Positions 53 to 37,513 of a stretch of DNA of 64,000 nt are shown piece after piece. Under the pieces are notes generated by a model. It saw only the letters and a program-made list of their open reading frames with translations, made no database searches and was not told where the DNA came from. Numbering within the stretch: position 1 is the first letter of the stretch; each line of letters opens with the position of its first letter. The position numbers were made by a program, and so were the translations under genes. Source of the stretch: an uncultured Spirochaetales bacterium (GTDB lineage: Bacteria; Spirochaetota; Spirochaetia; Treponematales; JBGSOB01); NCBI GenBank assembly GCA_964538705.1, contig CAZIEI010000003.1, positions 62 to 64,061 on the forward strand. Direction: 5' to 3'.

Positions 53-3000
53 ATGGCATTCGCCGGGGAGGGTCTTCCCGATCCCCTCCCCCTCATCCCC
101 GCCGGGGACCGGGCGGAGCCTTGGCTCGAATTCTGGAACGCGTGGCGCGCGGGCGGCCTCGAGGACGCGAGGGCCTTCCTCGAGGGCTCGGGCCCCGGAC
201 TCGACACGGACTGGGGCGTCCGCGCCCGGGCGGCCCTCGCCGTCGCCTCGGGCGCTCCCGCCTCCGCGATCGAAGGCATGGAACGGCTGAGGCTGAAGCG
301 CCCCGCGAGCCCGGTGATCAAGAAGGAGCTTCTCGACTGCCTTCTCGCCGTCGGCGAAGCGAAGCGGGCGATGGAGACCGCGCGGGGCCTCCTTTCCGAG
401 AGGAGGAGCCCGGGAAGGGAGCTGTCCTCGCCCTGGGAATACGTCCCCCCCGCGGTCGTCGTCCGCTGCGCGGAGTACGCCTCCCGTTCGGAGGGGCCTC
501 CGGCCACCCTCGCCCTCGACGCGCTCGAGGACTGCCTCGCTCGCGTCCCGCAGTACGCGCCCGCGTACGCGGCCGTCGCGCGCATCAGGACCGCGAAGGG
601 CGATCAGGGGGGCGCCGCCCTCCCCTCGCGGATCGCCGCCGCGCTCGCGCCCGAGGCGCCCCAATTCGCGTGGCTGGCCGCCGACGCCCTCCTCCGGGAG
701 CGGGGCGCTGAGGCGGCGATCGCCTTCCTCGGCCGCTCCTGCGCCGCCGTGCTCGGCAAGAGGGACCTCTCTGCCATGTGCCTCATGGCGCGCGACTTCT
801 GCGCGATGGCCGGGAACGATGAGGCCGCGGACCGCTTCTCGTCCCTCGCGGCCGAGGGATGGCCCTCCGACCCGGCTGTCCTCGCGGATCGCGCGTCCGC
901 CGCCGCCGCGGCCGGCGGCTTCGACGCCGCCGAGGAGATCGCGGCGCGCATCGACGGCGGAGAGGGGAGGATCCACGCGCTCAAGGCGACATCCAGAATC
1001 GCAGCCATGAAAGGCTCGCTCTCCTCCGCGCGGGAATTTTTGCTCGCCTGGAACGGCGCCGAACCGCAATCCGCGGAAGCCCTCTCCCTCCTCCTCGCCC
1101 TCGAGGAATTCGAATCGGGCCCGGAGCGGGCGCTCGCCATCGCCGAGGAGAGGTACGCCTCGTATCCCGCGGACGACGGGGTCCGGAATTGCCTGTACGG
1201 CCTCATCCGGCGCCTCCGCGGGGACGAGGCCGCGAGGCGGTTCCTCTGGTCCGCGCTGGAACGCGATCCCTGGGACGCGTGGACGATGCGGGAGATCGGC
1301 ATCCTCGAGACGGCCGAGGCGGAGACCCTTCCCGAGGCCGAGCGGAATCGGCTCCTCGAATCGGCCGCCGGCCTCCTCGAGTCATCGAGAGCGGTCGACC
1401 CCGCGGCTCCGGCGAACGGGTTCCTCGCGGCCAGGCTCGCCCAAGCGCGCGGCGCCCTCGGCGAGGCGGCCGACGCGGCGCTCGCCTCGATCGCCTCCGA
1501 TCCGCGGAACGCGGGATTCGCGTCGCAGGCGGGCGTCTTCATGGCCGGGCTCTCGGGCCCCGAACGGGCGGATTTCGCTGCGCGGCTCGAACGGGCGATC
1601 GCGCCCGGGCGCCATCGCGCCTCGGCGTTCGCGCTCGCCGCGACGATCGCCCGGTTCGTCGGGATCCGCGAAGCCCTCGACGCGCTCGACCGGATGATCG
1701 GCGTCGACGAGCGCCTCGAGCCGGACAGGCTCTCGTTCATGCTGGACTGTTGCCAGGGAGCGCTCCCCCGGGAGGCCGACCTCGACGAGGCGGTCGAGGG
1801 GAGCGGCGGGTTCGCCGGGGCCGCACGGCTCATGACGCGGGCGCGCGCGCTCGGCGCGATGGGCCGGACGGCGCGCGCGGCGGAGCTCCTCCTCGAGCGC
1901 GTCGCGGCCGCGCCAATGGACGCGCAAGCGCGCGCAACGGCGGTACAGGCCCTTTCCTCGCTCGAGCGGAAGGAGGAAGCGGCTTCACTTCTCGACGCGT
2001 TCACGGGGCTTTCCGCACCTGACGCGGGAGCGTTCGCGGCCATGGCGCGCGCAGCCATTTCGATCGAACGGAGCTCGATAGCCCTCGAACTCGTCGAATC
2101 CGCGCTCCGCAGGTACCCACGCGACGCGGCCCTCCTCTCCCTGTACGACGATCTGGGAGAGCGATTCCTCTTCGCGGAAAAGGCCGCAGCCGCCTGCGAG
2201 GAAGCCTTCCGGGCGACGGGCGATCCCGACATCGCCATCGCGGGAATGAGGGCCCGGAGGCGGCTCGAGGCCTGGGGCCCCGGCGCCGTCGAAGCCTCGG
2301 CCATGGAGGCGCTCGCCGCGCGACCCGGGCACGCGGGAACCGCGGATTTCCTCGCGCAGGTCCACGCTGACCGGGGCGCCTACGTCGAGGCCCTCGCCGT
2401 CCTGGACCGGTCCTTCCCCGTCAACGCGGGGTTCCTGGCGCGGGGCAGGAGAGGCGTCGTCCTCTTCATGCAGGGCGAGCGGATCAAGGCCGTCTCCGAG
2501 TTCGTTGCCGTCCTCGTGGAACGCCCCGAGTACGATTGGGGCTGGTACGCCCTCGGATCGGTGATCGCGCAAACGGACGATTTCCTCGACGAGGCGCTCG
2601 CTCCCCTCGTCCCCGTCCTCGAACGCTTCCCCGGGCGCGCGCTCTCGCTCATCGCCGCGCGCGAGCCCCTCAAGGCGGCGCCGGGAGCCATAGTCGGGGC
2701 GCTCGCCGCCGCCGCCGAGCGCCTCCCCGGCATGCCCTCCCTCTCGGACGCCGCGCTGCGCCGCTGCCGGGCGGACGCCGACCGATTGGCCTCGATCGAA
2801 CGCTCGCTTCTCGAGGGATTTCCCTCCCATCCGGCCTCGCTCATCCACAGGATCGAGCGTTCCCCGCCGTCATGCATGGGCCCCCTCCTCCTCGAATACT
2901 GGGACCTCGACGCGTCCGCCCGCGCGCCCTACGACGCGCTCCTCTGGGCCCTCTCCCGGAAGGAGGACGCGGCGAAGGCCATCATGACCGCGTTCTATCC

Positions 3001-3967
3001 GGGGCTGAAGGAAGGGAGGATAGACCGCGCGTCCGTCGCCGCCTGCGCCTCAGCCCTCGAGGCGATGCCCTTCGGCTCCTTCGCGGGAGCCTTTCCGGAG
3101 GAGTGGAGGGCTTCCGAGGAATCCGCCTCGACCAAGGCCGTCGCCCTCCTTGACGCTTGTCCCTCTTCTCCCGCGGGCGACGCGGCGGCCTGCGCCATCC
3201 TCTCCTGGCTCGAGGGGAACAACCGCCTGGACGCCGCGGCGCGCTTCCACACGTCCCATCCCGATCGCTTCGAAACGGGCAGCGAAGGATGGGAGCGGCG
3301 CGTCTACGCCTACGTCGCGAGCGGGGACCTCGAGTCCGCGCGGAGGGAGACCGCGGGATGGACGGGCACGCGGGGCGCCTCCCTCTGGACCGGCTGGAAC
3401 GCCCTAGTCGCCCTAGGCGCGGCCGATGTTAATCAGGGCGATCCCGGGAAAATCGCCGAGGCCGCCCGCGCCTATCTCGGGAAGCTCGAACCCGACGGGC
3501 TCGCGCGGGCGACGGTTTACGCCCTCGCCGAGGCCCTCCTCAGGATGGAGAAGGACGATGAATTCCTCGCCCTCGCCTCCTCATGGGACGAGGCCTTCTC
3601 GGCCGCGAGGCCCGGGTATTGGTTGCCGAATGGCAAGGAATGGTGGCGGGAGTCCATGCCACGCATGGCGGAAATCCTCCGCGCGCGGCCCGGCGAGGAG
3701 GAAGCCGAAGGCGCCTTCGCGGCAATCCGCGGCTCGGCGCCCCCGAAGTGGGCCATGGCCAGGGCGATCGAGGCGATCGCCGGGGACAATCCTTTGCGCC
3801 GGGCCGCCCTGAAGGTCCGCGCCGCGACGGGAAGACGACACTCGAATTCGGGCGCGTCCGCCCGCCCCTCCGGAAACGGAGCGCGATCCACGGTGCCCTA
3901 CTTCACGATTATCGTGGTCGTAATAGCGCTCCTACGGTTGATCAAGGCCTGCTCCTCGACGATGTGA
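53..3967 (+). CDS. Large Ala/Leu/Arg-rich helical-repeat (TPR-like) protein with hydrophobic C-terminal segment; possibly 5'-truncated by the window edge
   Basis: 1304-aa ORF with native GC3-rich codon use. The composition looks like helical repeats, but no specific family was recognised. The C-terminus carries VPYFTIIVVVIALLRLI. The frame stays open upstream to nt 2, so the true start may lie outside the window. Confidence 0.6.
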   Translation: MAFAGEGLPDPLPLIPAGDRAEPWLEFWNAWRAGGLEDARAFLEGSGPGLDTDWGVRARAALAVASGAPASAIEGMERLRLKRPASPVIKKELLDCLLAVGEAKRAMETARGLLSERRSPGRELSSPWEYVPPAVVVRCAEYASRSEGPPATLALDALEDCLARVPQYAPAYAAVARIRTAKGDQGGAALPSRIAAALAPEAPQFAWLAADALLRERGAEAAIAFLGRSCAAVLGKRDLSAMCLMARDFCAMAGNDEAADRFSSLAAEGWPSDPAVLADRASAAAAAGGFDAAEEIAARIDGGEGRIHALKATSRIAAMKGSLSSAREFLLAWNGAEPQSAEALSLLLALEEFESGPERALAIAEERYASYPADDGVRNCLYGLIRRLRGDEAARRFLWSALERDPWDAWTMREIGILETAEAETLPEAERNRLLESAAGLLESSRAVDPAAPANGFLAARLAQARGALGEAADAALASIASDPRNAGFASQAGVFMAGLSGPERADFAARLERAIAPGRHRASAFALAATIARFVGIREALDALDRMIGVDERLEPDRLSFMLDCCQGALPREADLDEAVEGSGGFAGAARLMTRARALGAMGRTARAAELLLERVAAAPMDAQARATAVQALSSLERKEEAASLLDAFTGLSAPDAGAFAAMARAAISIERSSIALELVESALRRYPRDAALLSLYDDLGERFLFAEKAAAACEEAFRATGDPDIAIAGMRARRRLEAWGPGAVEASAMEALAARPGHAGTADFLAQVHADRGAYVEALAVLDRSFPVNAGFLARGRRGVVLFMQGERIKAVSEFVAVLVERPEYDWGWYALGSVIAQTDDFLDEALAPLVPVLERFPGRALSLIAAREPLKAAPGAIVGALAAAAERLPGMPSLSDAALRRCRADADRLASIERSLLEGFPSHPASLIHRIERSPPSCMGPLLLEYWDLDASARAPYDALLWALSRKEDAAKAIMTAFYPGLKEGRIDRASVAACASALEAMPFGSFAGAFPEEWRASEESASTKAVALLDACPSSPAGDAAACAILSWLEGNNRLDAAARFHTSHPDRFETGSEGWERRVYAYVASGDLESARRETAGWTGTRGASLWTGWNALVALGAADVNQGDPGKIAEAARAYLGKLEPDGLARATVYALAEALLRMEKDDEFLALASSWDEAFSAARPGYWLPNGKEWWRESMPRMAEILRARPGEEEAEGAFAAIRGSAPPKWAMARAIEAIAGDNPLRRAALKVRAATGRRHSNSGASARPSGNGARSTVPYFTIIVVVIALLRLIKACSSTM

Positions 3968-10787: not shown

Positions 10788-10861
10788 GGGGGTGTAGCTC
10801 AGTTGGCTAGAGCGTTTGAATGGCATTCAAGAGGTCAGGGGTTCAATTCCCCTCACCTCCA
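10788..10861 (+). tRNA. tRNA-Ala (anticodon GGC)
   Basis: A full cloverleaf can be drawn by hand. Acceptor stem gggggtg/cacctcc includes the G3:U70 alanine identity pair. Anticodon loop is at-GGC-at (GGC at 10822-10824). T-arm is agggg-ttcaatt-cccct. No CCA is encoded. Confidence 0.9.
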
Positions 10862-10868
10862 CGACAGG

Positions 10869-10903
10869 AAAAGCCGTCCGTAAGGACGGCTTTTTTCTTT
10901 TTC
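10869..10903 (+). terminator. Rho-independent terminator after tRNA-Ala
   Basis: Stem gccgtcc (10873-10879), loop gtaa, stem ggacggc (10884-10890), followed by ttttttcttttt. Confidence 0.8.
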
Positions 10904-16210: not shown

Positions 16211-16239
16211 GGTTTATGTTCAATATTTGAACATAAACC
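16211..16239. promoter_or_regulatory. Perfect 13-bp-arm palindrome (candidate operator) in divergent intergenic region
   Basis: ggtttatgttcaa-tat-ttgaacataaacc. It lies between the divergently transcribed lipoprotein gene (start 16029) and the beta-barrel protein gene (start 16326), in a roughly 40% GC spacer. Confidence 0.5.
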
Positions 16240-16325
16240 GAGGGGTTTGAATCAAAATACAGTAGTAAAAATTGATAACCGAGACCAGCCGCGCTAAATT
16301 ATTGGTTGTCCAAAAGGAGGACACC

Positions 16326-16883
16326 ATGCGCAGGATTCTTATTATCGCTCTTGTCGCTCTCATCCCCCTGGCCGCGTTCAGCCAGACCTTCCAGATCGGT
16401 CCCACGGCGTTCTTCGACTTCCCCATGAAGCTGGCTGATGCCGACACATACCCCCCGCTCAAGGAGATCGGCCTGGACGACTTCACGTTCGGCGCCGATG
16501 CGCGCTTCCGCCTCTTCAAGCTCCTCGAGATCTCCGGACTCGCGCTCTTCAGCCCCCCCGCCTTCTACGAGGAAGAGCTCTACTACGTTCCCGGCAGTAT
16601 CGACATCTTCGCGGACGCCGGCGTCTACCTCGGCTTCGGCATCATCGGCGCGGGCATCGGCGTCGGCCCGAATTTTCGCATCCCCATCGATACCGAGGGC
16701 GTTTCGGACGACATCTTCCAGCTCGGCTTCAACACCAGGGCTCATGCCGACGTGAACCTCGGGAAGATCGGCGTGAGCCTCAACTACCTCATGTACCTGC
16801 CCGAACTCAGCAAGGAGGCCTTCGACGCCCTCGGCGAAAACCTCGTGGGCAGCGTCGGCGTCTCGGTGCTCTTCAACATCTAG
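16326..16883 (+). CDS. Small outer-membrane beta-barrel-like protein with signal peptide
   Basis: The start was trimmed to the ATG at 16326, which is preceded by AAAGGAGG. Signal peptide MRRILIIALVALIPLAAFSQ. The rest shows an alternating aromatic/Gly beta-strand pattern ending in VGVSVLFNI. Confidence 0.65.
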   Translation: MRRILIIALVALIPLAAFSQTFQIGPTAFFDFPMKLADADTYPPLKEIGLDDFTFGADARFRLFKLLEISGLALFSPPAFYEEELYYVPGSIDIFADAGVYLGFGIIGAGIGVGPNFRIPIDTEGVSDDIFQLGFNTRAHADVNLGKIGVSLNYLMYLPELSKEAFDALGENLVGSVGVSVLFNI

Positions 16884-16989: not shown

Positions 16990-17637
16990 ATGCTGTCGGA
17001 CTATGGGATCCTCGGCGTCGAGGAGGGGGCCGACGAGAATGCCGTGAAGGCGGCGTACCGCCAGCGGGTCAAGGCCGTCCACCCGGACCACTCCTCGGAC
17101 GAGGACGCTTTCAAGAACCATCTCCTCTTCATTCAGATCAACCAGGCCTACCGGAGGGTCTTGCGAGGCCTCGCCGCGCGGTCGGCTCCTTCGCGCGTCC
17201 CCAGGCCCGCGCCCCCTCGACCAGCCTCCGCTCCCGCGCCGTCTCCGCGGGGAACGGGCCCTGGCCTCGTGCAGCACCGCGATCCGGCCTACGTCTACTA
17301 CCGGACGGCGACCCGGTTCTTCGAGCAGATCCATCCCGCGAAGTGGAGCATGCCCAACGCCCGGCAGTCGAATCGGCCCCGCTCCCCCTTCGACGCGCGG
17401 GAACAGACAGAGATGAAGCGCATCGTGCAGGACCTCGCGCGGCTCTTCCCGAAGGCGTACTACTACTACAGCCTCGTCGTTGACGATTACCCGGACAGCG
17501 TCTGGAGCGCGGACGCCGCGGACAAGATGCGGCTCATCGAGGAGCGGACGCGCCTCTACGAAAGGATCCTGGAATCCTTCGGCGTCTGGGACAAGGAAGG
17601 TCCGCACCGTACGTTCAAGCCGGTCGGAACCGCATGA
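16990..17637 (+). CDS. J-domain (DnaJ-like) protein without Gly/Phe or zinc-finger regions
   Basis: N-terminal DYGILGVEEGADENAVKAAYRQRVKAVHPDH carries the HPD motif. It is followed by a Pro/Ala-rich linker and an unrelated C-terminal domain. Confidence 0.75.
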   Translation: MLSDYGILGVEEGADENAVKAAYRQRVKAVHPDHSSDEDAFKNHLLFIQINQAYRRVLRGLAARSAPSRVPRPAPPRPASAPAPSPRGTGPGLVQHRDPAYVYYRTATRFFEQIHPAKWSMPNARQSNRPRSPFDAREQTEMKRIVQDLARLFPKAYYYYSLVVDDYPDSVWSADAADKMRLIEERTRLYERILESFGVWDKEGPHRTFKPVGTA

Positions 17638-17822
17638 GAGCTCCCCGCTCCGCGAATCGGCCCGCCATGCCGCTTCCGGGATAGGGGGAGCGCCCGTCGC
17701 GCGGATCGTTCGTAGTGCGCGGGGACGCTCGGGCGACGGGCCGGGGGAAAGGGCGGGAGCTCTTTCCCCATCGGGATGGGAGTCGCATGCGAGGCATCGG
17801 GCAGGTTTATCAAAGCGCCTAC

Positions 17823-17854
17823 AATAAAAAAGCCGGACCTCAGGTCCGGCTTTT
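17823..17854. terminator. Second copy of the terminator (unit A), bidirectional in appearance
   Basis: gccggacc-tca-ggtccggc is flanked by A6 on one side and T4 on the other. It could also terminate the convergent J-domain gene. Confidence 0.65.
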
Positions 17855-18015
17855 CCGCTTCGGGCGTCTGTGACCCGAAGGCTGCTGGTAGGGCTCCGTA
17901 TGCAACGCGGATCAGCGCGGGGAGCGCTGATCCGCTATGGCTAACAAGGCTTATCGCGAATTACCAGCGGTAATTCGCGAACGCCTTGTTATGGCCGTTA
18001 TCGGAATGCGCCTGC

Positions 18016-18043
18016 AATAAAAAAGCCGGACCAAAGGTCCGGC
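18016..18043 (-). terminator. Rho-independent terminator downstream of rpsG (unit B)
   Basis: On the minus strand: gccggacc-ttt-ggtccggc followed by ttttttatt. Confidence 0.75.
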
Positions 18044-18129
18044 TCTCCTGCTTCGGGCGTCTGTGCCCCGAAGGCTGCTGGTAGGGCTCCGTAGGCAACG
18101 CGGAATCGCGCGACGCGCGGTTCCGCTAT

Positions 18130-18183
18130 GGCTAACAAAGCCTTTCCAATTACCAGCGGTAATTGGCAAAGGCTTTGTTAGCC
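18130..18183 (-). other. 25-bp hairpin spanning the rpsG stop codon
   Basis: 18130-18154 pairs with 18158-18183, giving 25 bp with one bulged C at 18167 and a loop at 18155-18157. The rpsG stop (TAA, complement of 18150-18152) and the last 9 codons lie inside the stem. Confidence 0.75.
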
Positions 18184-18620
18184 TCAGCCATCTTGTGCGT
18201 GTCTTCCTTCTTCTTAACGGCGGTGCCCTGGTTATTGAAGGCGTCAGCGAACTCCTGGGCCAGGCGGTCGGCCATGGATTTGCCGGCGCGGCCGCGGGCG
18301 GCGGCGATGAGCCAGCGCATGGCCAGGGCTTCGCGGCGGGACTCGCGGATTTCGATGGGCACCTGATAGGTGGCGCCGCCGACGCGGCGGGACTTCACTT
18401 CCACCACGGGCTTCACGTTGTCCATGGCCTTCATGAAGACCTCGAGGGGTTCAGTGTTCGTCTTCTCCTTGAGGGTGGCCATGGCGTCGTACATGATGCC
18501 GGCGGCGATGGCCTTCTTGCCCTGGACCATCATCCTCTGGATGAACTTGGACACGATCACGGAGTTGTAGCGGAAATCGGCCCTGAGAGGCCGGTTGATG
18601 GACTTCCTCTTCCTTCCCAT
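18150..18620 (-). CDS. rpsG: 30S ribosomal protein S7
   Basis: MGRKRKSINRPLRADFRYNSVIVSKFIQRMMVQGKK...ANKAFANYRW is unmistakably S7. Confidence 0.95.
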   Translation of the reverse strand: MGRKRKSINRPLRADFRYNSVIVSKFIQRMMVQGKKAIAAGIMYDAMATLKEKTNTEPLEVFMKAMDNVKPVVEVKSRRVGGATYQVPIEIRESRREALAMRWLIAAARGRAGKSMADRLAQEFADAFNNQGTAVKKKEDTHKMAEANKAFANYRW

Positions 18621-18631
18621 TGCGTTCCCCC

Positions 18632-19006
18632 TTAGGCCTTCGGCCGCTTGGCGCCGTACTTGGAACGGCCCTGCTTGCGGTCAGTGACGCCCAGGGTGTC
18701 CTTGGTGCCGCGGATGATGTGATAGCGCACGCCCGGGAGGTCCTTGACGCGGCCGCCGCGGATGAGGACCACGGAGTGCTCCTGAAGGTTGTGGCCCACG
18801 CCGGGAATGTAAGCGGTGACTTCGATGCTGTTGGAGAGGCGGACGCGCGCGACCTTGCGGAGGGCGGAGTTGGGCTTCTTGGGGGTAACGGTCATGACGC
18901 GCGTGCAAACGCCGCGCTTCTGCGGACAGCGCTGGAGGGCGGGCGCCTTGGTCCGTCCCTTGACGCCCGTGCGCCCGAGGCGGACGAGCTGGTTGATCGT
19001 CGGCAT
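18632..19006 (-). CDS. rpsL: 30S ribosomal protein S12
   Basis: [12 protein letters not shown]...[18 protein letters not shown] is unmistakably S12. The start was trimmed to the ATG at 19006 (124 aa). Confidence 0.95.
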
Positions 19007-19171
19007 ACGATATCTGCTCCCTATTCGATGACTTGAGTCCGGATACGCTTTCAATGCGCTGATGCGGAACGAGGCGGCCGAAACCCCTGGCCGGCATGGA
19101 AGGGCGCATCAGCACGATGGCGCTCCCCTGCCTTCCCGTCCCGCGTCCTGAGTGGTCCGGTACAGATTGGC

Positions 19172-27291: not shown

Positions 27292-29169
27292 ATGATATCG
27301 ACCTTCGCGGGGATAGAGATCGGGAAGCGCGGGATGGTGGCCCACAACCAGGGCCTCAACACCGTCGGCCACAACCTCACCAATGCTTCCAGGGAGGGGT
27401 ACTCGCGCCAGCGCGTGGAGATGCAGGCCTTCGAGCCCCTCTACCTGCCGCAGCTCAACCGCGAGGAGACCCCGGGCCAGATCGGCCAGGGCATCGTGGT
27501 GGAGCGCGTGGAGCGGATCAAGGACATGCTCCTCGAGGGCAGGATCGTGGACCAGGCGAGCGAAGAAGGCTACTGGGACAACCGCGATGGCTACGCGCTC
27601 CAGCTGGAGCAGATCTATAACGAACCCACGGATTCCTCCACCCGCGCGCACCTGGACCGGTTCTGGGACGCCTGGCAGGAGCTCTCCATGCATCCCGAGG
27701 AAATGGCCGCGCGCCAGGCAGTCCTCACGCGCGGGCAGAGCCTCATGGACGCCGTCCACGACCGCTTCAAGCGCCTCTCGGCCCTGCGCGAGCAGGTGGA
27801 CCTGGACATACGCGCGCGCGTGGCGCAGGTCAACGACCTCACCGCGGGCATCGCCGCGCTTAATGTAGAGATAACGAAAGCGAAGGCCGTGGGCGACAAC
27901 CCCAACGACCTCATGGACCGGCGGGACCAGCTCATCGAGAAGCTCGCGGGCTACATGGACGTCACCGTGGACGGCCGCGACCCCGACGAGTACATGGTCC
28001 ACGCGGGCGGGCAGATCCTCGTGCAGGGATCGCTCCGCAACCGCTACGAGCTTTCCACGGATACGGAGAACGACGGCCTCACCGCGGTGACCTGGGAGTG
28101 GTCCGGCGAGCGCGCCTACTTCGAGTCGGGATCGCTCGGTTCGCTCTTCGACCTCCGCGACGGCGACATCAAGGCCGAGATCCAGGGCCTGGACGTCATG
28201 GCCCTGAGCTTCGCCGACCTCGTGAACGAGATACACCGCGCGGGCTACGGCCTCAACGGCAGGACCGGCGTCGACTTCTTCGTCGAGCGCCCGTACGTCA
28301 ACAACCTCGCGGGCAACTACGACAGGAACGGCGACGGGACCTACGACTCGAGCTGGATCTACCGCATGACGGGCTCCAATCCGCTCGACGCCCGCGAGCA
28401 ACCCGGCCTCGAGGGCGAGATCGTCCTCCCCGGCGTCGATGGCGACGTGACCATCCCCTACCGCGCGGCGGACACGGTCCAGGACATCGTGGACCGCGTC
28501 AACCGCTCGGGCGCGGAGGTGACCGCCCGACTCGACCGCTCGGGCAGGCTCGAGCTCAAGGCCACGCCCGCCGCGGCTCTGCAGGACCCCGACTTCGTGA
28601 TCCGCTCCCTCGAGGACTCGGGAGAATTCCTCGCCGGCTACGCGGGCATCCTCTCCGCCCCCGGCGCCGCCGGAGCCTACTCCTGGGACAGGGCGGACGC
28701 CGCCCTCGGCCTCCGCGTGGGGGGCGTGGACTTCGCCGTGGCTCCCCAGACCCATCCCTCCGGCTGGCTCGAGATCAATCCCGCGCTCAAGAGCGACCTT
28801 TCCACCCTCGCCGCCGGCCTCGGCCGCGGGGGGAAGCCGGCGGAAACCGGCGACGGGAGCGGCGCCCTCGCCATAGCCGCCCTACGCAACACCGCGGTCA
28901 TGGTGGGCGGCGCCGTCACCTTCGACGCCTACTTCCAGGACGCGGTCGCGCGCGCCGGCCTCCGCGGCGAGCAGGCCGCGCGGGCCAACGAGGACCAGTC
29001 CCTCATCATGAAGGACCTCCGCGACCTCAGGGAATCCATCTCCGGAGTCAATATCGACGAGGAGCTCTCGCAGATGATCAAGTTCCAGCACGGCTACGCC
29101 GCCGCGGCCCGCTTCGTGGCCAACGTGAACGAGATGCTGGACACCATAATCAACAGGCTGGGGGTGTAA
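27292..29169 (+). CDS. flgK: Flagellar hook-associated protein 1 FlgK
   Basis: MISTFAGIEIGKRGMVAHNQGLNTVGHNLTNASREGYSRQ at the N-terminus and DEELSQMIKFQHGYAAAARF at the C-terminus. Confidence 0.9.
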   Translation: MISTFAGIEIGKRGMVAHNQGLNTVGHNLTNASREGYSRQRVEMQAFEPLYLPQLNREETPGQIGQGIVVERVERIKDMLLEGRIVDQASEEGYWDNRDGYALQLEQIYNEPTDSSTRAHLDRFWDAWQELSMHPEEMAARQAVLTRGQSLMDAVHDRFKRLSALREQVDLDIRARVAQVNDLTAGIAALNVEITKAKAVGDNPNDLMDRRDQLIEKLAGYMDVTVDGRDPDEYMVHAGGQILVQGSLRNRYELSTDTENDGLTAVTWEWSGERAYFESGSLGSLFDLRDGDIKAEIQGLDVMALSFADLVNEIHRAGYGLNGRTGVDFFVERPYVNNLAGNYDRNGDGTYDSSWIYRMTGSNPLDAREQPGLEGEIVLPGVDGDVTIPYRAADTVQDIVDRVNRSGAEVTARLDRSGRLELKATPAAALQDPDFVIRSLEDSGEFLAGYAGILSAPGAAGAYSWDRADAALGLRVGGVDFAVAPQTHPSGWLEINPALKSDLSTLAAGLGRGGKPAETGDGSGALAIAALRNTAVMVGGAVTFDAYFQDAVARAGLRGEQAARANEDQSLIMKDLRDLRESISGVNIDEELSQMIKFQHGYAAAARFVANVNEMLDTIINRLGV

Positions 29170-29172
29170 ACC

Positions 29173-30420
29173 ATGAGGCGCGTATCCACGGACATGGCCA
29201 ACAACGACGCGCAGTACTGGCTCAGGAGGACGGAGTCGCGCATGCAGGCCTCCGAGAAGTCCATCGCGAGCGAGTCGCGCATCGGCGACCTCAGGGACGA
29301 TCCGGTGGCGGCCGCGCACGCGGTCCGCTATGCGTCCTTCGTCGGCCGCCTCGAGCGCTTCGAGGCCAACACTCTGAAGCTCAACGACGCCATCAGGTCC
29401 GGCGAGGGCTACGTCCGCCAGGCCATCGACGTCATGCAGCGCGTGCGGGAGCTCGCGGTCCAGGGGGCGCAGAACACCCTCTCCAAGGAGGACATGGGAT
29501 ACATGGCCACCGAGGTGGACGAGCTCCTCAAGGAACTCGTGATGTCCGCGAACGCGAAGGACGCGGACGGCACCGCCCTCTTCGCCGGCACCCGCTCGCT
29601 CGCCGAGCCCTTCCGCGTCGTGATGGGCCGCGCTCCCGGCTCCGCGGCCGAGACCATCGTGGGCGTCCAGTATACCGGTTCGATCGACTCCAACAAGGTG
29701 GAGATCGGAGAGGGCGAGTTCATCGAGCAGGACATGGCGGGGAACGCCGTCTTCTGGGCCGACCGCCAGCTCGTCGTCTCATCGCGCGACGCACGGGGAT
29801 TCCTCCTCCTCGCGGACGAGGCCATCAGGGTGGACGGGAAGGAAGTCCTCCTCAAGGCCGGCGACGACGTCACCGCCGTGGCGGCCAAGATCAACGACTC
29901 GGGCGCGGCCGTGAAGGCCTACCTGGATCCCGAGTCCGGAGGACTCGCCATCGAGACCACGGACGCGCACCAGCTCTGGCTCGAGGACGGGCCCGGCGGC
30001 GACGCACTGGTCCGCCTCGGCGTCCTCAAGGGATCGGGATCGCCCCCGCCCTACGACTACGCCGAGAGCGCCCGCGTCTCCGGCGGCAGCCTCTTCGACT
30101 CCGTGATGGCGCTCCGCGACGCGCTCAACAAGGGCGACGTCTTCGAGATCGGCGGGCGCGGGATCGCCGGCGTGGACGCGGCCCTCCACAGCCTCGAGCG
30201 GCGCGTCGCCGAGATCGGCTCCCGCTCGGAGCGCCTCGAGTTCGCGGCGGGCCGCCTGAACCGCGAGGTTCCGGACGTCACCGCCCAGCTCTCGCGCGAG
30301 CAGGACGTGGACCTGGCCGAGGCGATCACGGATCTCCGGAGCCTCGAGAACACGCATAAGGCCTCCCTGCAGGTGTCGGGGCGGCTCTTCCCCCAGACCC
30401 TCCTCGATTTCCTGAGATGA
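29173..30420 (+). CDS. flgL: Flagellar hook-associated protein 3 FlgL
   Basis: Flagellin-like N- and C-terminal helices (RVRELAVQGAQNT...; ...DLRSLENTHKASLQVSGRL). The position directly after flgK supports the call. Confidence 0.85.
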   Translation: MRRVSTDMANNDAQYWLRRTESRMQASEKSIASESRIGDLRDDPVAAAHAVRYASFVGRLERFEANTLKLNDAIRSGEGYVRQAIDVMQRVRELAVQGAQNTLSKEDMGYMATEVDELLKELVMSANAKDADGTALFAGTRSLAEPFRVVMGRAPGSAAETIVGVQYTGSIDSNKVEIGEGEFIEQDMAGNAVFWADRQLVVSSRDARGFLLLADEAIRVDGKEVLLKAGDDVTAVAAKINDSGAAVKAYLDPESGGLAIETTDAHQLWLEDGPGGDALVRLGVLKGSGSPPPYDYAESARVSGGSLFDSVMALRDALNKGDVFEIGGRGIAGVDAALHSLERRVAEIGSRSERLEFAAGRLNREVPDVTAQLSREQDVDLAEAITDLRSLENTHKASLQVSGRLFPQTLLDFLR

Positions 30421-30448
30421 GCGGCGGGGGACAGGCAAGGATGACCGC

Positions 30449-30898
30449 ATGATAGTCCAGACGAAGGCCTACGGGCCCGTGGAGGCGGACGACCGCCAGA
30501 GGATCAGCTTCCCCAAGGGCCTCCTCGGCTTCGATTCGCTCAGGGAATTCGCGCTCCTCAACGCCAAGCAGGAGCCCTTCTTCTACCTGCAGTCGCTCGA
30601 GGATCCGAACATCGCCTTCATCCTCATCGACCCCTTCCTCTTCAGGCCGGACTTCGAGATGGACGTCTCGGACGCGGAGCTCGGTGCCATCGGGATCGAG
30701 TCGCCGGACGACGGCCTCGTGTTCGCCATCGTCACCGTGCCCGCCGAGGGCGGTCCCGTCACCGCCAACCTCATGGGGCCGGTGATCATCGGCAGGAAGA
30801 GCCGCAAGGGTTTCCAGGCCATCCTCGGGGACCCGCGCTGGCGCACCAAGCACGACATCATGGCCGAGATGGCCGCCGCGGGAAAAAGCGCATGCTGA
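30449..30898 (+). CDS. fliW: Flagellar assembly factor FliW
   Basis: [19 protein letters not shown]...[21 protein letters not shown]...[10 protein letters not shown]. Confidence 0.9.
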
Positions 30899-31128
30899 TC
30901 CTCACGCGCAAGTCCGACGAGAGCATCGTCATCGGGGACAGCATCGAGATATCCGTCCTGGAGATCCGCGGGGACCAGGTGAAGCTCGGCGTGAACGCCC
31001 CTCGCGACGTCAAGGTCTTCCGCCGCGAGGTCTTCGACGCGATCCGCGCCGAGAACCGCGCGGCGGCCTCTTCCGCGGCGGAGCTCCCGCCCATGGGGCT
31101 GGCTCCGGGCAAGACCGAGGCTCCCTGA
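30892..31128 (+). CDS. csrA: Carbon storage regulator CsrA (FliW-partnered type with C-terminal extension)
   Basis: [47 protein letters not shown]. The start overlaps the fliW stop by 7 nt (ATGCTGA). Confidence 0.95.
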
Positions 31129-32001: not shown

Positions 32002-33938
32002 TCGTTCATCCCGCATCGGGCCTCCCGATGGGCGACCCTGAAACGGATCCCTTCGCCCCCGGCAAGCGCCCCTCGCCCCGCGCGGTGCGCGACGCAGCCT
32101 CCACCCTCATCCTCTCCGCGTCCGGCTGGCGGAAGGTCTTCGCCCCGGGCGGGGACGAGAATTCCTTGGAGGAACGGCCCGCCCCCGAGGACCTCGCCCT
32201 AGCGGCCCTCGCGGCGATGGCCTTCGGAGAATGGCGGATCGCCGCCCGCGGCGCGGCCGGCCCCGGACCGGTCATCGTCGGCGTCGACACGAGGCCCACC
32301 GGCCCCGCCCTCTCCGACGCCATGATCCGCGTCCTCATTTCCCTCGGCATCCCCGTGCGCCACCTCTTCATCGCTCCGGCGCCCGAGGTCATGGCCTACG
32401 CGCGGTCCTCGGCCGGAGACGCGGACGCCGCGAACCGCGCCGATTCCTTCTGCTACGTCTCCGCGAGCCACAACCCCCCGGGCCACAACGGCGTGAAGTT
32501 CGGTCTCGCGGACGGCGGGGTCCTCCCCCGCGAGGCCTCCGACGAGCTCGCGGCGGCGATGAAGCGCGCGCTCTCCGATGACGACGCGATCCGCCGCGCG
32601 ATGGACCTCGCTTCGGGAGCGCCGCACAAGGCGGTAGCGGACGCGTTCGCCGCCTCCCACCGCTGGAAGCGCCTCGCGCACTCGGCCTATCTCCTCTTCA
32701 CGCGCGAGGTCGTCACCGGGACGCCCCGCCTGGCCGCGCAGGAGGGCATTCTCGAGCGGCTCGGCCTCGCGCTCACCGCGCACCCCCTTGGCGTGCTCGC
32801 CGACATGAACGGCTCGGCCCGGACGGTATCGATCGACAGGGACTTCCTCTCCTCCGCGGGCATCGCGTTCCAGTCGGTCAACGACCGGCCGGGCGCTTTC
32901 GCCCACCGCATCGTCCCCGAGGGTGACGCCCTCGAGGCCTGCGCGGAGGCACTCGCCAAAGCGCGCGCGCGCGATCCCGCCTTCCGACTGGCCTACGTGC
33001 CTGACTGCGACGGAGATCGCGGCAACCTCGCGTACTGGGACGACAAGGACGGGAGGGCCGCTCCGGTCGAGGCCCAGGAAGTCTTCGCCCTCGCCCTCCT
33101 CTCCGAGCTCGCCTTCCTGGAATGGAAGGCGTTCTCCATCGGCGTCGAGGCGTCCGGCGCGGGCCCGCGGCGGATCTGCGTCGTGACCAATGACCCCACC
33201 TCCATGCGCATCGACGAGATCTCGCGCGCCTTCGGAGCCGAGACGCATCGCGCGGAAGTGGGCGAGGCCAACGTCGTCGGCCTCGCGCGGAGCCTGAGGG
33301 ACGCGGGAGCCGAGGTGCCCTTCCTCGGGGAGGGCTCGAACGGCGGCTCCATCGTCCATCCCTCCTCCGTGCGCGACCCCCTGGACACGGTGATGGCGGT
33401 CGCGAAGCTCCTTTCCATGCGCGACGAGGGATCGAGGCCTGGGCTCTTCCACATCTGGCTCGAGAAGACGGGGCGCGGCTCCTCGTACCGCCCGGACTTT
33501 AGCCTGCGGGACGTCCTGGATTCCCTGCCCGCCTTCGCGACGACGAGCGTCTTCGAGCCGCGAGCCGCGCTCAAGGTCGCCGCGAGCGATTACGCGAGGC
33601 TCAAGGAGCGCTTCGAGGCCGTGTTCAAGCGGGACTTCGAGGCGCGGCGCGACGAGCTCGCTACGCGCTACGGGATCGCCTCGTGGAAGGCGGCGTCGTA
33701 CCGCGGACGGGAGGAGCGGATCGGAATCGAGCGATTCTCCGATTCCGGAACCGGCGGCCTTAAAATCCTCTTCTCGGACGAGTCGGGGAAGCCTACCGCC
33801 TTCATCTGGATGCGCGGCTCGGGAACCGAGCCCGTCCTCAGGATCCTCGCCGACGTGAAGGACGGCCTTCCCGAGGATGAAGAGTACTTCCTCTCCTGGC
33901 TCTCCGCGATGGTGCGGGAGGCGGATTCCCGGGCATGA
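31998..33938 (+). CDS. Alpha-D-phosphohexomutase superfamily enzyme (phosphoglucomutase/phosphomannomutase-like, 646 aa)
   Basis: All four family motifs are present. Catalytic Ser loop: SASHNPPGHNGVKF. Metal loop: PDCDGDRG. Sugar loop: GEGSNGG. Phosphate loop: RGSGTEPVLRI. The start was trimmed to the ATG at 31998. Confidence 0.85.
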   Translation: MIVHPASGLPMGDPETDPFAPGKRPSPRAVRDAASTLILSASGWRKVFAPGGDENSLEERPAPEDLALAALAAMAFGEWRIAARGAAGPGPVIVGVDTRPTGPALSDAMIRVLISLGIPVRHLFIAPAPEVMAYARSSAGDADAANRADSFCYVSASHNPPGHNGVKFGLADGGVLPREASDELAAAMKRALSDDDAIRRAMDLASGAPHKAVADAFAASHRWKRLAHSAYLLFTREVVTGTPRLAAQEGILERLGLALTAHPLGVLADMNGSARTVSIDRDFLSSAGIAFQSVNDRPGAFAHRIVPEGDALEACAEALAKARARDPAFRLAYVPDCDGDRGNLAYWDDKDGRAAPVEAQEVFALALLSELAFLEWKAFSIGVEASGAGPRRICVVTNDPTSMRIDEISRAFGAETHRAEVGEANVVGLARSLRDAGAEVPFLGEGSNGGSIVHPSSVRDPLDTVMAVAKLLSMRDEGSRPGLFHIWLEKTGRGSSYRPDFSLRDVLDSLPAFATTSVFEPRAALKVAASDYARLKERFEAVFKRDFEARRDELATRYGIASWKAASYRGREERIGIERFSDSGTGGLKILFSDESGKPTAFIWMRGSGTEPVLRILADVKDGLPEDEEYFLSWLSAMVREADSRA

Positions 33939-36900
33939 CGGCGTCGCGCCGCTTCCTCGCCTCGCTCGCGGCCTTCTCGCTCGCCGCGGCGGCGCGCCTC
34001 GGCGCGCAGGCCCCTTCGCCGCCCGCTCCGTCCCCAGCGCCCTCATCCGCTCCTCCTCCATCACTGGCAGCGCCTTCTCCATCTCCATCCCCCGCGGCGG
34101 CGGAAGACCTCGTCGCCTCGACCATGGCCCTAGACATCGCGACCGCGGGCATCTACGAGCTCGACGCCTGGTGCGAATCCCTGGGACTCCCGCGCACGGG
34201 CACGGTCGACGAGCTCAGGACGCGTCTCTACGGTCACTACGGCGCCAAGCCCCCCTCGTCCGCGGCGGGCAAGGGACGGACCATCACCGTCAAGAACGCG
34301 GGCAAGGCCGAGTCCTTCCTCATGGAGGGTATCGACGAGCGCTACGTAAGGTTCTCGGGCGGCGTCGTCCTCGTCCTCGTCGAACCTGAGAAGAATTGGA
34401 CCCACGAGATCCATGCGCGGGAGATCCTCGTGAACCAGACGGCCTCGCTCCTCTCCGCGCGCGGCGACGTCACCTACACGCTCAAGAAGCCGGGCTCGGA
34501 GGAGCGCTTCTCCGGCGAATGGCTGGACGTCGACCTGGACACCTGGACCGGGCACTTCCTGGACGGAAGGATCGTGAGGACGGGCGGAGCGGAGGACCTC
34601 CAGACGAAATTCGTGTTCGCCGCGGACGTCGTGAGGACGGGCGACGCGGAGCGCGCGGTCTTCGACAACGCGGTGATCTCCTCCGCAGAAACGGGCATGC
34701 CCTACTACTCCATCAGGGCCACGCGCGTGTGGCTCCTCGGGCCCGGCGAATGGGCAATGTCGAACGCCGTCCTCTCCGTCGGCGAGGTGCCGCTCCTCTA
34801 CCTGCCTTTCTTCTTCTACAACGGCGAGGAGCTCGTATTCCACCCGGTGGTGGGCGACCGCGACCGCGAAGGTCCCTTCTTCCAGACGACCTACTACTTC
34901 AAAGGCCAGAAGCCCGCGGGCAAGGAGAGTATCTCCCTCCTCCAGCTCCAGGCCTCCAAGGATTCGGGCCCCAGGAAAGTAAAGGGGCTCTACATCGTCC
35001 CCGCGAAAGAGGGCGACGAGGACGCCATCAAGAAGACCCAGGACGTCTTCAAGCTCATGCTGGACGGGTACTCCAACCTGGGGGCCTTCCTGGGAACCGA
35101 GCTGCGCTTGACGGAGAATCCCAAGGTCAAGGTGAACCTCTTCGCCGTCGCAGCCATCACGCGCAACGTGTACTCGAGCGTGACCTCGGGCGCGAGCATG
35201 GACTACACGCCCTACGTGGAGGCGCACGACTGGAAGAGCGTCTGGAACGCCTCGCGCTTCCTCGGGCTGAGGCTCCCCTTCAGGTACGGGGCCGACTTCT
35301 CCCTTACGCTCGCGCTTCCGCCATTGAGCGCGACCTTGGCCTTCCCCTTCTTCTCGGATCCCTACGTCGAGGGGGAATTCAAGAATCGGAAGGAGGACAT
35401 GGACTGGTTCGCCTTCCTCAAGGAATCGAAGACCGATACGGCCGCGACCGTAAAGCGGAGCAGCCTGGACATGCGCGCGGAGCTGTCGCTCGCGCCGTCG
35501 ACGGCGAAGCTGTCCCCCTACGTGACGACCGCGAGCCTGAGCTACCTCAGAACCAAGCTCTCGTGGCTCGCCAAGACCGCCTCGAACAACGGGCTCGAGC
35601 CCCCGGGGACGAACGAGGACGTGGATCCCACGCGAGAATTCTTCTACCCCGATCTCCTCACGATGGTCGACGCCTCCGCGAAAATAGCGGGGACGCTGGC
35701 ATCATGGCCGCCTAAGGCCTCGGCCGTGTCCGTCGCGACCGCACCCACTCCGCCGCCTGCCGCGGTGTCCCCTGACGGAGCGGCGATCCCGGCCGCCGCT
35801 CCACCGTTGGCGGAGGTCCCGCCCATCGAGGACCCCGACCCCCTCCCCGCGGACAAGGCCTACAAGCCCCCCGATCCCCTTCAGCCCTGGGAGGAGGCCC
35901 CTCCGGCGGAAACCGCCGAGAAGCCCGCCGATGAAAAGGATTATCCCCTCTCTGCTTTCCGCGTGGACGCGCTCAAGGCGCCGCAGGCGCCCCAGCTCCC
36001 CGCGCCGCAGGCGCCTTTCACTTTCACCCTCGGCTACGCGATGGATCCCTCAGCCACCCTCGAGCGGCGCTTCCTCGCGGAGTCCTGGCCCAATCCCGAA
36101 GACGTCGATTGGGCGGCGCTCCATGACAAGTCGCTCGTGAAATTCTCTGGCTCGCTGGACGCAGCAGCCGCCTTCCTTGGCGGCGCCGCCTCCGCCTCGC
36201 TGAAGCTGGGGGTGAAGAGCCAGGTCCAGGACCACTTCAACCTGACAGAAGACGAGACCTACTTGAACGACGACGCCCAGCTCGCGCTCGTGAAGACCGA
36301 CGCGCAGGCGAGGTCCGACAACCTCACGGGGACGGCCAGGCTCTCCGCCAAGCCCTTCACGGGCGACGCGTTCTGGGGCGAGAGCAGCCTAAGCTGGGAC
36401 CTGAGCGCCCTCCTCTACGACTACCGTTACGAAACGATGGACGGCGAGACGCCCGTATTCGCCACGAGGAGCCTGGAATGGAACACGGAATCCATCCCGA
36501 CCCACAGCCTCACCGCAACAGTCGTGGCCCTGCCCCTCGGATGGAGGCAGTCCCTCTCCTTGGTGGCGACGCTCCCTCCCAAGGACGAGTCTTACTCGGG
36601 CGCGCTGAGCTCCAGGATCGACGACATAACGTTGACCGCCTCATCGAAGATTTACCGTCCCGCAAACCAGTCCGACTGGAAGTACGATCCCCTCTCGCTC
36701 GGGGCACTGTACTCTCCCGGGGGCGGCTTCACGCTCTCCGACACCTTCGTGCAGAATCTCGAAGCCGCCAGGCCGGAATCGAACGCGACGACGGTCGGCT
36801 TCCGCGGGCTCAGCGCGACGTTCAACATGCGCCATTCCCCGGACTACTACTTCGACTCCGCCACCACTCCGATGCAGTGGAGGCAGACTCCGGGATCCGA

Positions 36901-37513
36901 GGGCTTCCGCCCCACGGACATGAATATCTCATTCTCGAAGAGCGATTGGAAGGACGCATATTTCTGGAAGAACCGGATCAAGGCCAAGCCTACCGTCTCG
37001 ACCAGCCTAGCCATCGATTTCCAGCAATTCACGAAGTCGAACTTCAACCTCAACCTCGGCGCGCAGGCGAGCGTCAACGAATTCCTCGACATCTCGCTGA
37101 GCTATACGTCCCAGAACGCGTCCATCTTCTGGTACTTTGTCGGCCTCCCCGGCTTCGAGATGAGCCCGGAGATCGACGAGAACAGGCGTAACCTCTTCAA
37201 GGACATCCTGGATTCCATTACGTTCTTCGTCTGGGACGAGGAGAGCGGGCGGCTCGTCTTCTCGGAGGAGGCGAGGCGTCGGAGCCTCTTCAAGCTCAAG
37301 AACATAGGGATCAGCCTCGTGCACCACATGCACGACTGGACCCTGACCGTGGACCTGAGCGCCAAGCCAGTCCTGAGAACGGTCGCGGGCGTCTCGGATT
37401 ATGTCTTCACACCGTCGTTCTCACTGGCAGTGCAGTGGAAGCCCATCTCCGAGCTCAAGACCAAGACCACCGTGACGGAGAACGCCGAGGGCACTCAGAT
37501 CACGATCGAGTAA
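33935..37513 (+). CDS. Large outer-membrane LptD/OstA-like protein with N-terminal signal peptide, Pro/Ser-rich linker and SAP-like motif
   Basis: Signal peptide FLASLAAFSLAAAARLGAQA. SAP-like segment ELDAWCESLGLPRTGTVDELRTRLYGHY. OstA-like segment ITVKNAGKAESFLMEGIDERYVRFSGGVVLVL...ARGDVTY. The long beta-rich C-terminal region has many aromatic-terminated strands. The LptD call is inference. Confidence 0.6.
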   Translation: MTASRRFLASLAAFSLAAAARLGAQAPSPPAPSPAPSSAPPPSLAAPSPSPSPAAAEDLVASTMALDIATAGIYELDAWCESLGLPRTGTVDELRTRLYGHYGAKPPSSAAGKGRTITVKNAGKAESFLMEGIDERYVRFSGGVVLVLVEPEKNWTHEIHAREILVNQTASLLSARGDVTYTLKKPGSEERFSGEWLDVDLDTWTGHFLDGRIVRTGGAEDLQTKFVFAADVVRTGDAERAVFDNAVISSAETGMPYYSIRATRVWLLGPGEWAMSNAVLSVGEVPLLYLPFFFYNGEELVFHPVVGDRDREGPFFQTTYYFKGQKPAGKESISLLQLQASKDSGPRKVKGLYIVPAKEGDEDAIKKTQDVFKLMLDGYSNLGAFLGTELRLTENPKVKVNLFAVAAITRNVYSSVTSGASMDYTPYVEAHDWKSVWNASRFLGLRLPFRYGADFSLTLALPPLSATLAFPFFSDPYVEGEFKNRKEDMDWFAFLKESKTDTAATVKRSSLDMRAELSLAPSTAKLSPYVTTASLSYLRTKLSWLAKTASNNGLEPPGTNEDVDPTREFFYPDLLTMVDASAKIAGTLASWPPKASAVSVATAPTPPPAAVSPDGAAIPAAAPPLAEVPPIEDPDPLPADKAYKPPDPLQPWEEAPPAETAEKPADEKDYPLSAFRVDALKAPQAPQLPAPQAPFTFTLGYAMDPSATLERRFLAESWPNPEDVDWAALHDKSLVKFSGSLDAAAAFLGGAASASLKLGVKSQVQDHFNLTEDETYLNDDAQLALVKTDAQARSDNLTGTARLSAKPFTGDAFWGESSLSWDLSALLYDYRYETMDGETPVFATRSLEWNTESIPTHSLTATVVALPLGWRQSLSLVATLPPKDESYSGALSSRIDDITLTASSKIYRPANQSDWKYDPLSLGALYSPGGGFTLSDTFVQNLEAARPESNATTVGFRGLSATFNMRHSPDYYFDSATTPMQWRQTPGSEGFRPTDMNISFSKSDWKDAYFWKNRIKAKPTVSTSLAIDFQQFTKSNFNLNLGAQASVNEFLDISLSYTSQNASIFWYFVGLPGFEMSPEIDENRRNLFKDILDSITFFVWDEESGRLVFSEEARRRSLFKLKNIGISLVHHMHDWTLTVDLSAKPVLRTVAGVSDYVFTPSFSLAVQWKPISELKTKTTVTENAEGTQITIE

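Follow-up and report, generated by a model that had tools for sequence, protein, structure and literature searches.

The DNA analysed here is a 64-kb window (67% GC) whose minus strand carries rpsL and rpsG, the genes for ribosomal proteins S12 and S7, followed in place of fusA or tuf by two tandem units that each combine a version of the last rpsG codons with a series of hairpins. In the list of open reading frames (ORFs), rpsG occupies 18150..18620 on the minus strand and encodes a full-length S7 of 156 amino acids that is 100% identical to database protein P0001, carries Pfam PF00177 as do all the S7 homologues, and is nearest to Spirochaetota and Treponema-like S7 proteins (an exact look-up of this S7 gave no record, in spite of the identical database protein); rpsL is a mechanical ORF at 18632..19054 on the same strand (Pfam Ribosom_S12_S23, E = 6e-41), whose true start probably lies further downstream on that strand. 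We call the unit adjoining the gene unit B, the distal one unit A, and untranslated copies of the gene end, here and in other genomes, pseudo-ends.

Unit B, the proximal and currently used unit, covers 17991..18179 (all parts of both units are given on the minus strand), from the core AACAAAGC through to the junction ...GATAACGGCCAT, and includes the last nine rpsG codons and the stop codon (18179-18150). Its parts follow in the order core, stop codon, complementary arm, GC hairpin, cttcggg hairpin, terminator, and junction. Specifically, i) the core (18172..18179, coding for Asn-Lys-Ala) is the left limit of homology between real end and pseudo-end, and is the equivalent of a core surrounding an insert in the related locus L090 described below; ii) the stop-codon hairpin HP1-B (18130..18183), evident from inverted repeats and the fold, has the coding sequence GGCTAACAAAGCCTTTGCCAATTACC as its 5′ arm, a GCT loop, and GGTAATTGGAAAGGCTTTGTTAGCC as its 3′ arm, with one bulged G; iii) the GC hairpin HP2-B (18100..18126), GCGGAACCGCGCG-TCG-CGCGCGATTCCGC, rests on sequence, fold, and covariation across units, and has ATA as its 5′ flank and GTTGCC as its 3′ flank; iv) HP3-B (18051..18073) is a CTTCGGG...CCCGAAG hairpin seen in both sequence and fold; and v) terminator B (18019..18044), AGCCGGACC-TTT-GGTCCGGCT followed by six T residues, was read from the sequence and is seen in the fold.

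Unit A (17807..17990), the distal and displaced unit, was delimited by the repeats, the alignment, and its pseudo-end, AAC AAG GCG TTC GCG AAT TAC CGC TGG TAA at 17990-17961, and its homology to unit B stops at GATAA (17811-17807). It holds the same four structures: HP1-A over the pseudo-stop (17939..17994; inverted repeat, fold, and direct reading), HP2-A, a perfect 12-bp GC hairpin GCGGATCAGCGC-TCCCC-GCGCTGATCCGC (17907..17935; inverted repeat and fold), HP3-A, again CTTCGGG...CCCGAAG (17858..17880; sequence and fold), and terminator A, AAAAGCCGGACC-TGA-GGTCCGGCTTTT followed by more T (17825..17854; inverted repeat and fold). In both units HP1 is a 24-26-bp hairpin whose 5′ arm consists of the Asn-Lys-Ala-Phe-Ala-Asn-Tyr codons and whose apex lies at Arg/Trp/stop. 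Both terminators were missed by a simple terminator scan, in our opinion because A/T pairs lengthen the stems into the T tract.

An earlier note on this DNA had described a tandem duplication of the rpsG 3′ end together with a downstream multi-hairpin element, and the duplication is real. Three families of direct repeats with spacings of 193, 191, and 189 nt and 80-88% identity place the unit size at 189-193 nt (189 nt from core to core, 18179-17991); a MAFFT alignment of the two units gives a mean column identity of 90%; and the 19-24-mers common to both occur nowhere else in the window, with 0 expected from shuffles. Each unit folds into the four parts HP1, HP2, HP3, and terminator, bearing out the same order of parts that had been claimed for both, and the folding z-score of the whole two-unit region is -15. 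Strong hairpins elsewhere in the window are limited to the terminator of a tRNA gene and one AT-rich palindrome. Tandem Repeats Finder did not call the pair, because of the indels and divergence between the units. The GC hairpins of the two units do differ in sequence, as stated, and by hand registration the difference amounts to two double compensatory changes; the perfect folding claimed for both applies to HP2-A alone, since HP2-B has one C.A mismatch on the rpsG-sense strand, corresponding to a G.T on the other.

The duplication is not, however, peculiar to the window. We examined the regions downstream of rpsG at 80 species-representative loci and in 17 further contigs, and found pseudo-ends reading NKAFAHYRW-stop in six spirochaete genomes besides the window (L008, L017, L020, L021, L022, and L090) but in 0 of ~50 non-spirochaete loci. 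Unit lengths are 77 nt in L090 and L020, 78 nt in L008 and L021, 126-129 nt in L022, 137 nt in L017, and 189 nt in the window; L021 and L022 have three units each (those of L021 being 93% identical), and six further loci (L081-84, L042, and L006) have a single module without a pseudo-end. The order is the same in all units: coding segment, complementary arm, GC hairpin, extra hairpins or a terminator in the long units, and then the next coding segment. The arm follows directly on the stop codon, or in L022 and L042 on a strong terminator; the left junction is identical in all arrays, (G)GCN|AAY AAR GC; and the GC hairpin is flanked across units by YTA|GC...GC|GTY. Arms with 10 nt or more of complementarity to the end of the gene were seen in spirochaete loci only, long-period tandem arrays called by Tandem Repeats Finder in ~100 loci plus the window lie at the rpsG-end site only, and the tag-hairpin motif is enriched downstream of rpsG about 20-fold over a background of 0.022 per kb, with no clustering elsewhere across the loci. 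The local duplication proposed earlier is confirmed as far as it went, and six other Spirochaetota genomes have the same layout.

The gene ends repeated downstream appear once to have been in real use. The earlier note had stated that the four differences within the 30-nt coding segment of the window units are all synonymous, and our comparison agrees (P ~6e-4 for four random substitutions). Elsewhere the differences between real and displaced ends are likewise synonymous only, 5 in L008, 6 in L020 (including CGC to AGG), 6 in L090, and 1 in L021; the L022 pseudo-ends, from Phe onward, show 2 and 5 differences, again all synonymous. For these other loci random substitution kept the peptide in 0 of 20,000 simulations. 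Non-synonymous changes are confined to the distal copy in L017 (K to R and A to T), and truncation affects the most distal copy in each of L020 and L021, so that the decayed copies (L017, L020, and L021) are the distal ones. Most telling is L020, where the non-coding parts of adjacent units are very different in sequence and the coding segment differs only synonymously: its pseudo-ends must therefore have been real ends, because in-place divergence of an untranslated copy would not behave in this way.

The clearest single case is a pair of loci from two samples, L089 and L090, which encode an identical S7 protein and are 100% identical over ~1.9 kb but for a homopolymer indel, a single mismatch where the shorter contig ends, and one 77-nt segment. 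This segment is present in L090 only and is bounded by the 8-nt core AACAAGGC; its GC content is 52%, compared with 62-66% for the host. The translated end in L090 (GCT TTT GCC CAT TAT CGT TGG TAG) has six synonymous differences over 22 nt from the displaced end, and the displaced end is the real end of L089 base for base, continuous with the native 3′ untranslated region (UTR) of L089. A step from essentially no divergence to 6/22 nt exactly at the core is compatible neither with a fresh slippage duplication nor with divergence in place. As judged from these sequences, a diverged unit would once have joined a naive rpsG at the core, and L089 would represent either the never-occupied state or a precise loss.

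A similar polarity can be read in the window. Genes in the window use AAG (88%) and TTC (95%) in preference to AAA (12%) and TTT (5%); unit A has the host-usual AAG and TTC, whereas the translated unit B has the rare AAA and TTT, and TTT accounts for 0 of 5 such codons in the rest of rpsL and rpsG. The 3′ arm of unit A, ...CCTTGTTAGCC, has its complement in GGCTAAC, which today exists only at the meeting point of the rpsG body and unit B, the 5′ edge of unit A itself being GGCCATAAC. In addition, the closest relative, L096 (S7 95% identical), shares AAC AAG GCG TTC GC with unit A. Codon usage, pairing of the arm with the rpsG body, and the sequence shared with L096 together suggest that the native end once in use was the distal copy, unit A, and that the proximal copy, unit B, arrived later. 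Past the shared stretch, L096 (810-902) continues GCA CAT TAC AGA TGG TAA, with His for Asn and the host-rare AGA, and after the rpsG end there is AT-rich DNA with its own terminator until the contig stops 62 nt past the stop codon; the switch may mark the left boundary of a larger piece of foreign DNA inserted at this same position.

Both principal hairpins covary. Alignments of 10-11 units from different genomes were registered by hand, so the following counts lean somewhat towards the proposed structures. The inner stem of HP1 is 85% paired compared with 72% in shuffles, a value reached by 0 of 500 shuffles; the third codon positions of Phe and Ala show no mispairs with the arm, even though the pairs vary (C-G/U-A 5:5 and G-C/A-U/C-G 4:3:3). 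The base helix of HP2 is 83% paired compared with 52% in shuffles, and both sides change in 5 of its 6 pairs, while the flanks hardly change at all: the 5′ T and the 3′ G are invariant, and the 5′ A and the 3′ T nearly so. Moreover, each arm matches the coding segment of its own unit better than those of other units (permutation p < 1e-5). In the window, the differences between units A and B lie in loops or are compensated, and the opposite arm of HP1 follows three of the four coding differences (again by hand registration), in keeping with the earlier statement that it changes in step. That selection acts on the structures, also proposed then, is borne out by covariation far above shuffles in both HP1 and HP2, and the conclusion that the hairpins are maintained by selection, as RNA or as DNA, holds. 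In HP2 of L008, L017, L021, and L022 a tandem G.A/A.G internal loop adjoins two G-C pairs, L021 and L022 having in common an 11-nt core GAGCGCAGCGA with a mini-hairpin of the GCGCAGC/GCGAAGC type; at the positions of this loop the HP2 of the window has Watson-Crick pairs.

We therefore give a little more than even credence to the view that the region is a stack of two rpsG 3′-end replacement cassettes at a fixed core, since recurrence and insertion polymorphism at such a core shift the reading from local duplication to cassette stacking; the window duplication appears to be one case of a spirochaete-wide, hairpin-bearing module that inserts in the last S7 codons. The alternative offered by the earlier note, a recombination product from a diverged rpsG allele, came close to the data and missed the recurrent, insertion-polymorphic module at a fixed core. 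A module is ORF-less and consists of a copy of the last 7-9 codons and stop, a complementary arm that puts a hairpin over the stop, a GC hairpin with conserved flanks, and in some lineages extra hairpins or a terminator. A new module would join at GCN-AAY-AAR-GC (Ala-Asn-Lys-Ala); its coding segment would become the translated end of S7, and the prior end would be pushed downstream as an untranslated pseudo-end. On this account unit A (17807-17990) would be the former native end and 3′ UTR, and unit B (17991-18179) the later arrival that is translated now, with transcription probably stopping at terminator B. The host-level effect would be one on mRNA 3′-end structure and termination.

The architecture, its recurrence, the fixed junction, the divergence at synonymous sites only, one clean insertion/deletion polymorphism, and the hairpin covariation can be read directly from the sequences. 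We infer both the direction of entry, proximal to the gene, and the mechanism, for which we favor recombination at the core guided by the hairpin-forming arm. Two routes may be envisaged: i) site-specific or single-strand-hairpin recombination, in which the arm would refold a single strand into a copy of the target duplex, the core containing AA|C as in the logic of integron attC sites (PMC3607928); or ii) homology-facilitated recombination after DNA uptake, in which conserved rpsG sequence would provide homology on the left and a module-terminal partial core, GGCC AAC AAG GC, on the right. The arm itself could be seeded by fold-back synthesis at the TACC...GGTA palindrome of the Tyr-Arg-Trp-stop codons.

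Several considerations weigh against this reading. The difference between L089 and L090 might have arisen not by insertion but by loss of the segment between the 8-nt repeats, and this is the one polymorphic pair available; a 77-bp double-stranded circle is physically implausible, so that classical att x att recombination cannot by itself account for the units; the 27 of 35 window ORFs scanned and the flanks of the array loci contained no recombinase, transposase, or integrase; viral contigs, phages, and plasmids yielded neither a free nor a parental form of the element; and the tandem arrangement in the window rests on an assembled contig. Finally, in a tree of S7 proteins L006, L008, L017, L020, L021, L022, and L042 form one clade in which all seven members have the module, set in the canonical order rpoC-rpsL-rpsG-[module]-fusA-tuf, and vertical inheritance of a functional intergenic element fits this distribution as well as mobility does. 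Inheritance by descent and a function for the host, such as termination, attenuation, or mRNA stability, therefore probably exist side by side with turnover of the module.

These last observations lead to the alternative that survives best, which we nonetheless consider unlikely: that the module is a cis-acting RNA element of the host, located in the 3′ UTR or the rpsG-fusA intergenic region, that serves mRNA stabilization, termination/attenuation, or S7 feedback, and whose extra copies arise by unequal homologous recombination of diverged alleles without any dedicated mobility. It overlaps the cassette reading on the observations and parts from it on the cause. The strong covariation of both hairpins, the confinement of window differences to loops or compensated positions, the 7/7 presence between rpsG and fusA in an otherwise normal str operon, and the failure to find a mobility gene are all as such an element would have it. 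On the other hand, in L022 and L042 the terminator lies upstream of the arm and the GC hairpin, which would thus rarely be in the mRNA; this argues against a purely RNA-level role and favors a DNA-level role at those loci. The module is also absent from the close relatives L089, L085, L088, and L097, there is no match in Rfam or similarity to 16S rRNA, folding energies of sense and antisense strands show no consistent asymmetry, and the sharp step in divergence at the L090 core is left unexplained.

A bolder version of the cassette reading, which we regard as doubtful, is that the module is a gene-less, self-restoring miniature mobile cassette homing to an essential gene, and belongs to a class not described before. 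The folded single strand would copy the rpsG target duplex, and it would be joined at AAY AAR GC by a recombinase, either the host's own or one acting in trans, or else through template switching during replication at TACC...GGTA, much as in the single-strand recombination of integron attC sites or CTX phage but without an integron, leaving a chronological stack of ends.

In-situ tandem duplication by slippage followed by divergence, giving a variable-number tandem repeat over the gene end, is very improbable. Local amplification does occur, as the three 78-nt units of L021 at 93% identity attest, and copy number does differ between L089 and L090; but a neutral untranslated copy would not stay synonymous over at least 29 differences in five genomes, the two ends in L090 differ at 6/22 nt where the ~1.9-kb flank shows essentially no difference, adjacent units in L020 share little outside the coding segment, and the contrast in codon usage between the two window copies argues for different origins.

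We would place at the same low level the idea that the units are integron-type cassettes, with the stop-codon hairpin as attC in an attC cluster lacking an integrase. The inverted core AAC...GTT (GGCTAAC...GTTAGCC, to be set beside the R″ RYYYAAC and R′ GTTRRRY boxes of attC) with one bulged G within 54 nt, the tandem array, and the AA|C within the junction are suggestive; yet the AAC is simply an Asn codon, the units have none of the promoterless ORFs that cassettes usually carry, they sit within an essential gene, and the Treponema clade lacks the module in the S7 tree. Neither the 27 window ORFs scanned nor the flanks contained an intI, an observation that is not decisive alone because attC clusters without intI exist. 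The bulged G of unit B also appears to be in the wrong arm and to be the wrong base for a canonical attC such as that of aadA7.

Slightly less probable still is a family of repetitive extragenic palindromes (REPs or REPINs) or of miniature inverted-repeat transposable elements (MITEs), moved by a RAYT/IS200-type or other transposase. The GC hairpin with its conserved unpaired 5′ tag YTAG and 3′ CGTY recalls GTAG- and CGTC-tagged REPs, and the 8-nt repeat around the L090 insert resembles a target-site duplication; against these stand the lack of any other copy in the 64-kb window, the low background of the motif, and the lack of terminal inverted repeats, and a transposon would not bring along a synonymous copy of its target codons. 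The antisense core has CTTG and GTTC, which may recall IS91-type targeting. Least probable of all is an assembly artefact in which the rpsG 3′ regions of two strains were concatenated: the window probably comes from a metagenome-assembled contig, and the contigs of L022, L017, and L096 end in or next to arrays, but the same architecture and junction position recur in independent NCBI, ENA, and JGI assemblies, the B-to-A junction ...CCGATAACGGCCAT|AACAAGG is unique sequence without a variant bubble, and no exact repeat between the units is longer than 27 nt.

Among known systems, the closest analogy in behavior is with integrative elements (integrative and mobilizable elements, integrative and conjugative elements, and prophages using tyrosine integrases) that insert at gene 3′ ends. 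Such elements occupy the 3′ ends of housekeeping genes including rplL, rpmE, rpmG, and rpsI, and accrete in tandem with the decayed cis-mobilizable elements known as CIMEs; rpsG is not among the targets listed (PMC5704250). As with the rpsG units, the element brings a copy of the target-gene end so that the gene stays intact; its direct repeats of 8-60 bp contain the gene end, just as rpsG units are bounded by the real end or pseudo-ends; successive integrations leave older gene ends downstream, as in the rpsG stacks; and occupied and empty sites share a short identical core, as L090 and L089 share AACAAGGC. The differences are equally plain: integrative elements are kilobase-sized or random remnants, whereas rpsG units are 77-193 nt long, gene-less, and of conserved layout, always have an arm complementary to the gene end, and have no integrase that we could find nearby. 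Similarly, the chromosomal integrons of Treponema, the only spirochaetes in which integrons have been reported, have 63-68-bp attC sites in which AAC and GTT are the only conserved letters, and resemble the rpsG arrays in their short tandem modules, imperfect single-strand hairpins with AAC/GTT, and fixed joining point (PMC3607928), but the rpsG units lack intI, the attI-Pc platform, and cassette ORFs. REPs are short GC hairpins with an unpaired tag, mostly downstream of genes, proposed to be both RNA 3′ structures and mobile, and CGTC REPs have been reported in Spirochaetes (PMC3733652). REP tags are similar, not identical, to the HP2 flanks YTA|G and GTY; and REPs occur in tens to thousands of dispersed copies without a coding copy, whereas the rpsG module is single-locus and tied to the gene end.

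A further comparison is with the MIRU minisatellites of mycobacteria, which are 40-100-bp intergenic units in tandem and in one orientation that overlap the upstream stop codon and vary in copy number from strain to strain. The MIRU units within a locus are near-identical slippage products, whereas the rpsG units are diverged, differ synonymously only, and have compensated hairpins. We rejected a diversity-generating retroelement, as the differences are mixed transitions and transversions at third codon positions without adenine bias and there is no reverse transcriptase among the scanned ORFs. Mimicry of the S7-binding rRNA was also rejected, local alignment of 11 units to E. coli 16S rRNA having produced no significant or consistent region.

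The Rfam search that the earlier note had proposed matched no family in the window arrays, at the gathering threshold or permissively, or in eight array-bearing or related loci; the best sub-threshold matches in the window were to unrelated families, a scan of the arrays found no tRNA or tmRNA, and there was no sign of the discrete small RNA that had been put forward as a candidate. No S7 relative was found in viral contigs, the foreign tail of L096 had no match there, and blastn searches of phage and plasmid collections found nothing. Pattern searches of the viral contigs returned one match to the two-ends pattern, a chance occurrence inside an AT-rich phage ORF, and 120 matches to the tag-hairpin pattern, all by chance and none with an arm or coding context. 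A metagenome scan with the N-terminal half of S7, chosen to avoid saturation by universal peptides, found only three distant loci.

Several features of the arrays and their surroundings deserve mention in their own right. The contigs of L022, L017, and L096 end inside or just past the rpsG-downstream array, suggesting that the locus is repetitive or polymorphic enough to break assemblies. The 78-nt units (L021 3469-3627 and L008 1576-1656) are in frame and stop-free between successive stops, so that a ribosome reading through the first stop would append 26 residues and arrive at the same C-terminus again; readthrough is not a general property, as the frame is lost in the 77-nt units of L090 and L020 and an in-frame stop comes early in the window, and a conserved TAG serving as backup stop codon was rejected because the frame in which it falls varies from unit to unit. 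Immediately behind the most distal stop, TAGACGAG(C/A)CC occurs in L008 (1657-1670) and in L089/L090, which belong to different S7 clades, and may reflect chance or a trace of a common ancestral 3′ flank. In relatives L081-L091 the gene after rpsG is tuf, an EF-G gene, a chemoreceptor gene, or a convergent gene of unknown function, so that in this clade synteny breaks at the 3′ flank of rpsG; in the window the two-gene rpsL-rpsG unit is followed by a convergent DnaJ-domain ORF (16990-17637).

Elsewhere in the window, a flagellar cluster (FlgK, flagellin-like FlgL, and FliW; 27292-31128) fits a spirochaete origin, and there are several very large ORFs without a Pfam match (53-3967 and 33935-37513, for example). 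A tRNA gene on the plus strand (10788-10861) is the sole Rfam match in the window and is directly followed by its terminator hairpin (10869-10894). A perfect 13-bp AT-rich palindrome, GGTTTATGTTCAATATTTGAACATAAACC (16211-16239), stands out in a 67% GC genome and has the look of an operator, lying ~30 nt upstream of a plus-strand ORF (16272-16883) without a Pfam match.

We conclude that the feature in the window is real, is more than a local duplication, and is best filed as a gene-end-targeting integrative module, miniature and ORF-less. If this is true, the end of an essential and conserved ribosomal protein gene would be a recombination hotspot across a phylum, and the translated last codons of S7 would have been repeatedly exchanged for foreign synonymous versions, a compact natural form of gene-end replacement by an element that can be smaller than 100 nt. 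The stack of displaced ends would then be a readable record of past insertions, and there would be a practical reason for assembly breaks at the rpsG locus. The reading would also point to a recombination activity, hairpin-guided or homology-facilitated, that might be harnessed to direct insertions to a conserved site. Should the hairpins instead prove to be a regulatory RNA of the host, the str operon would contain, where rpsG adjoins fusA, a cis element not described before.

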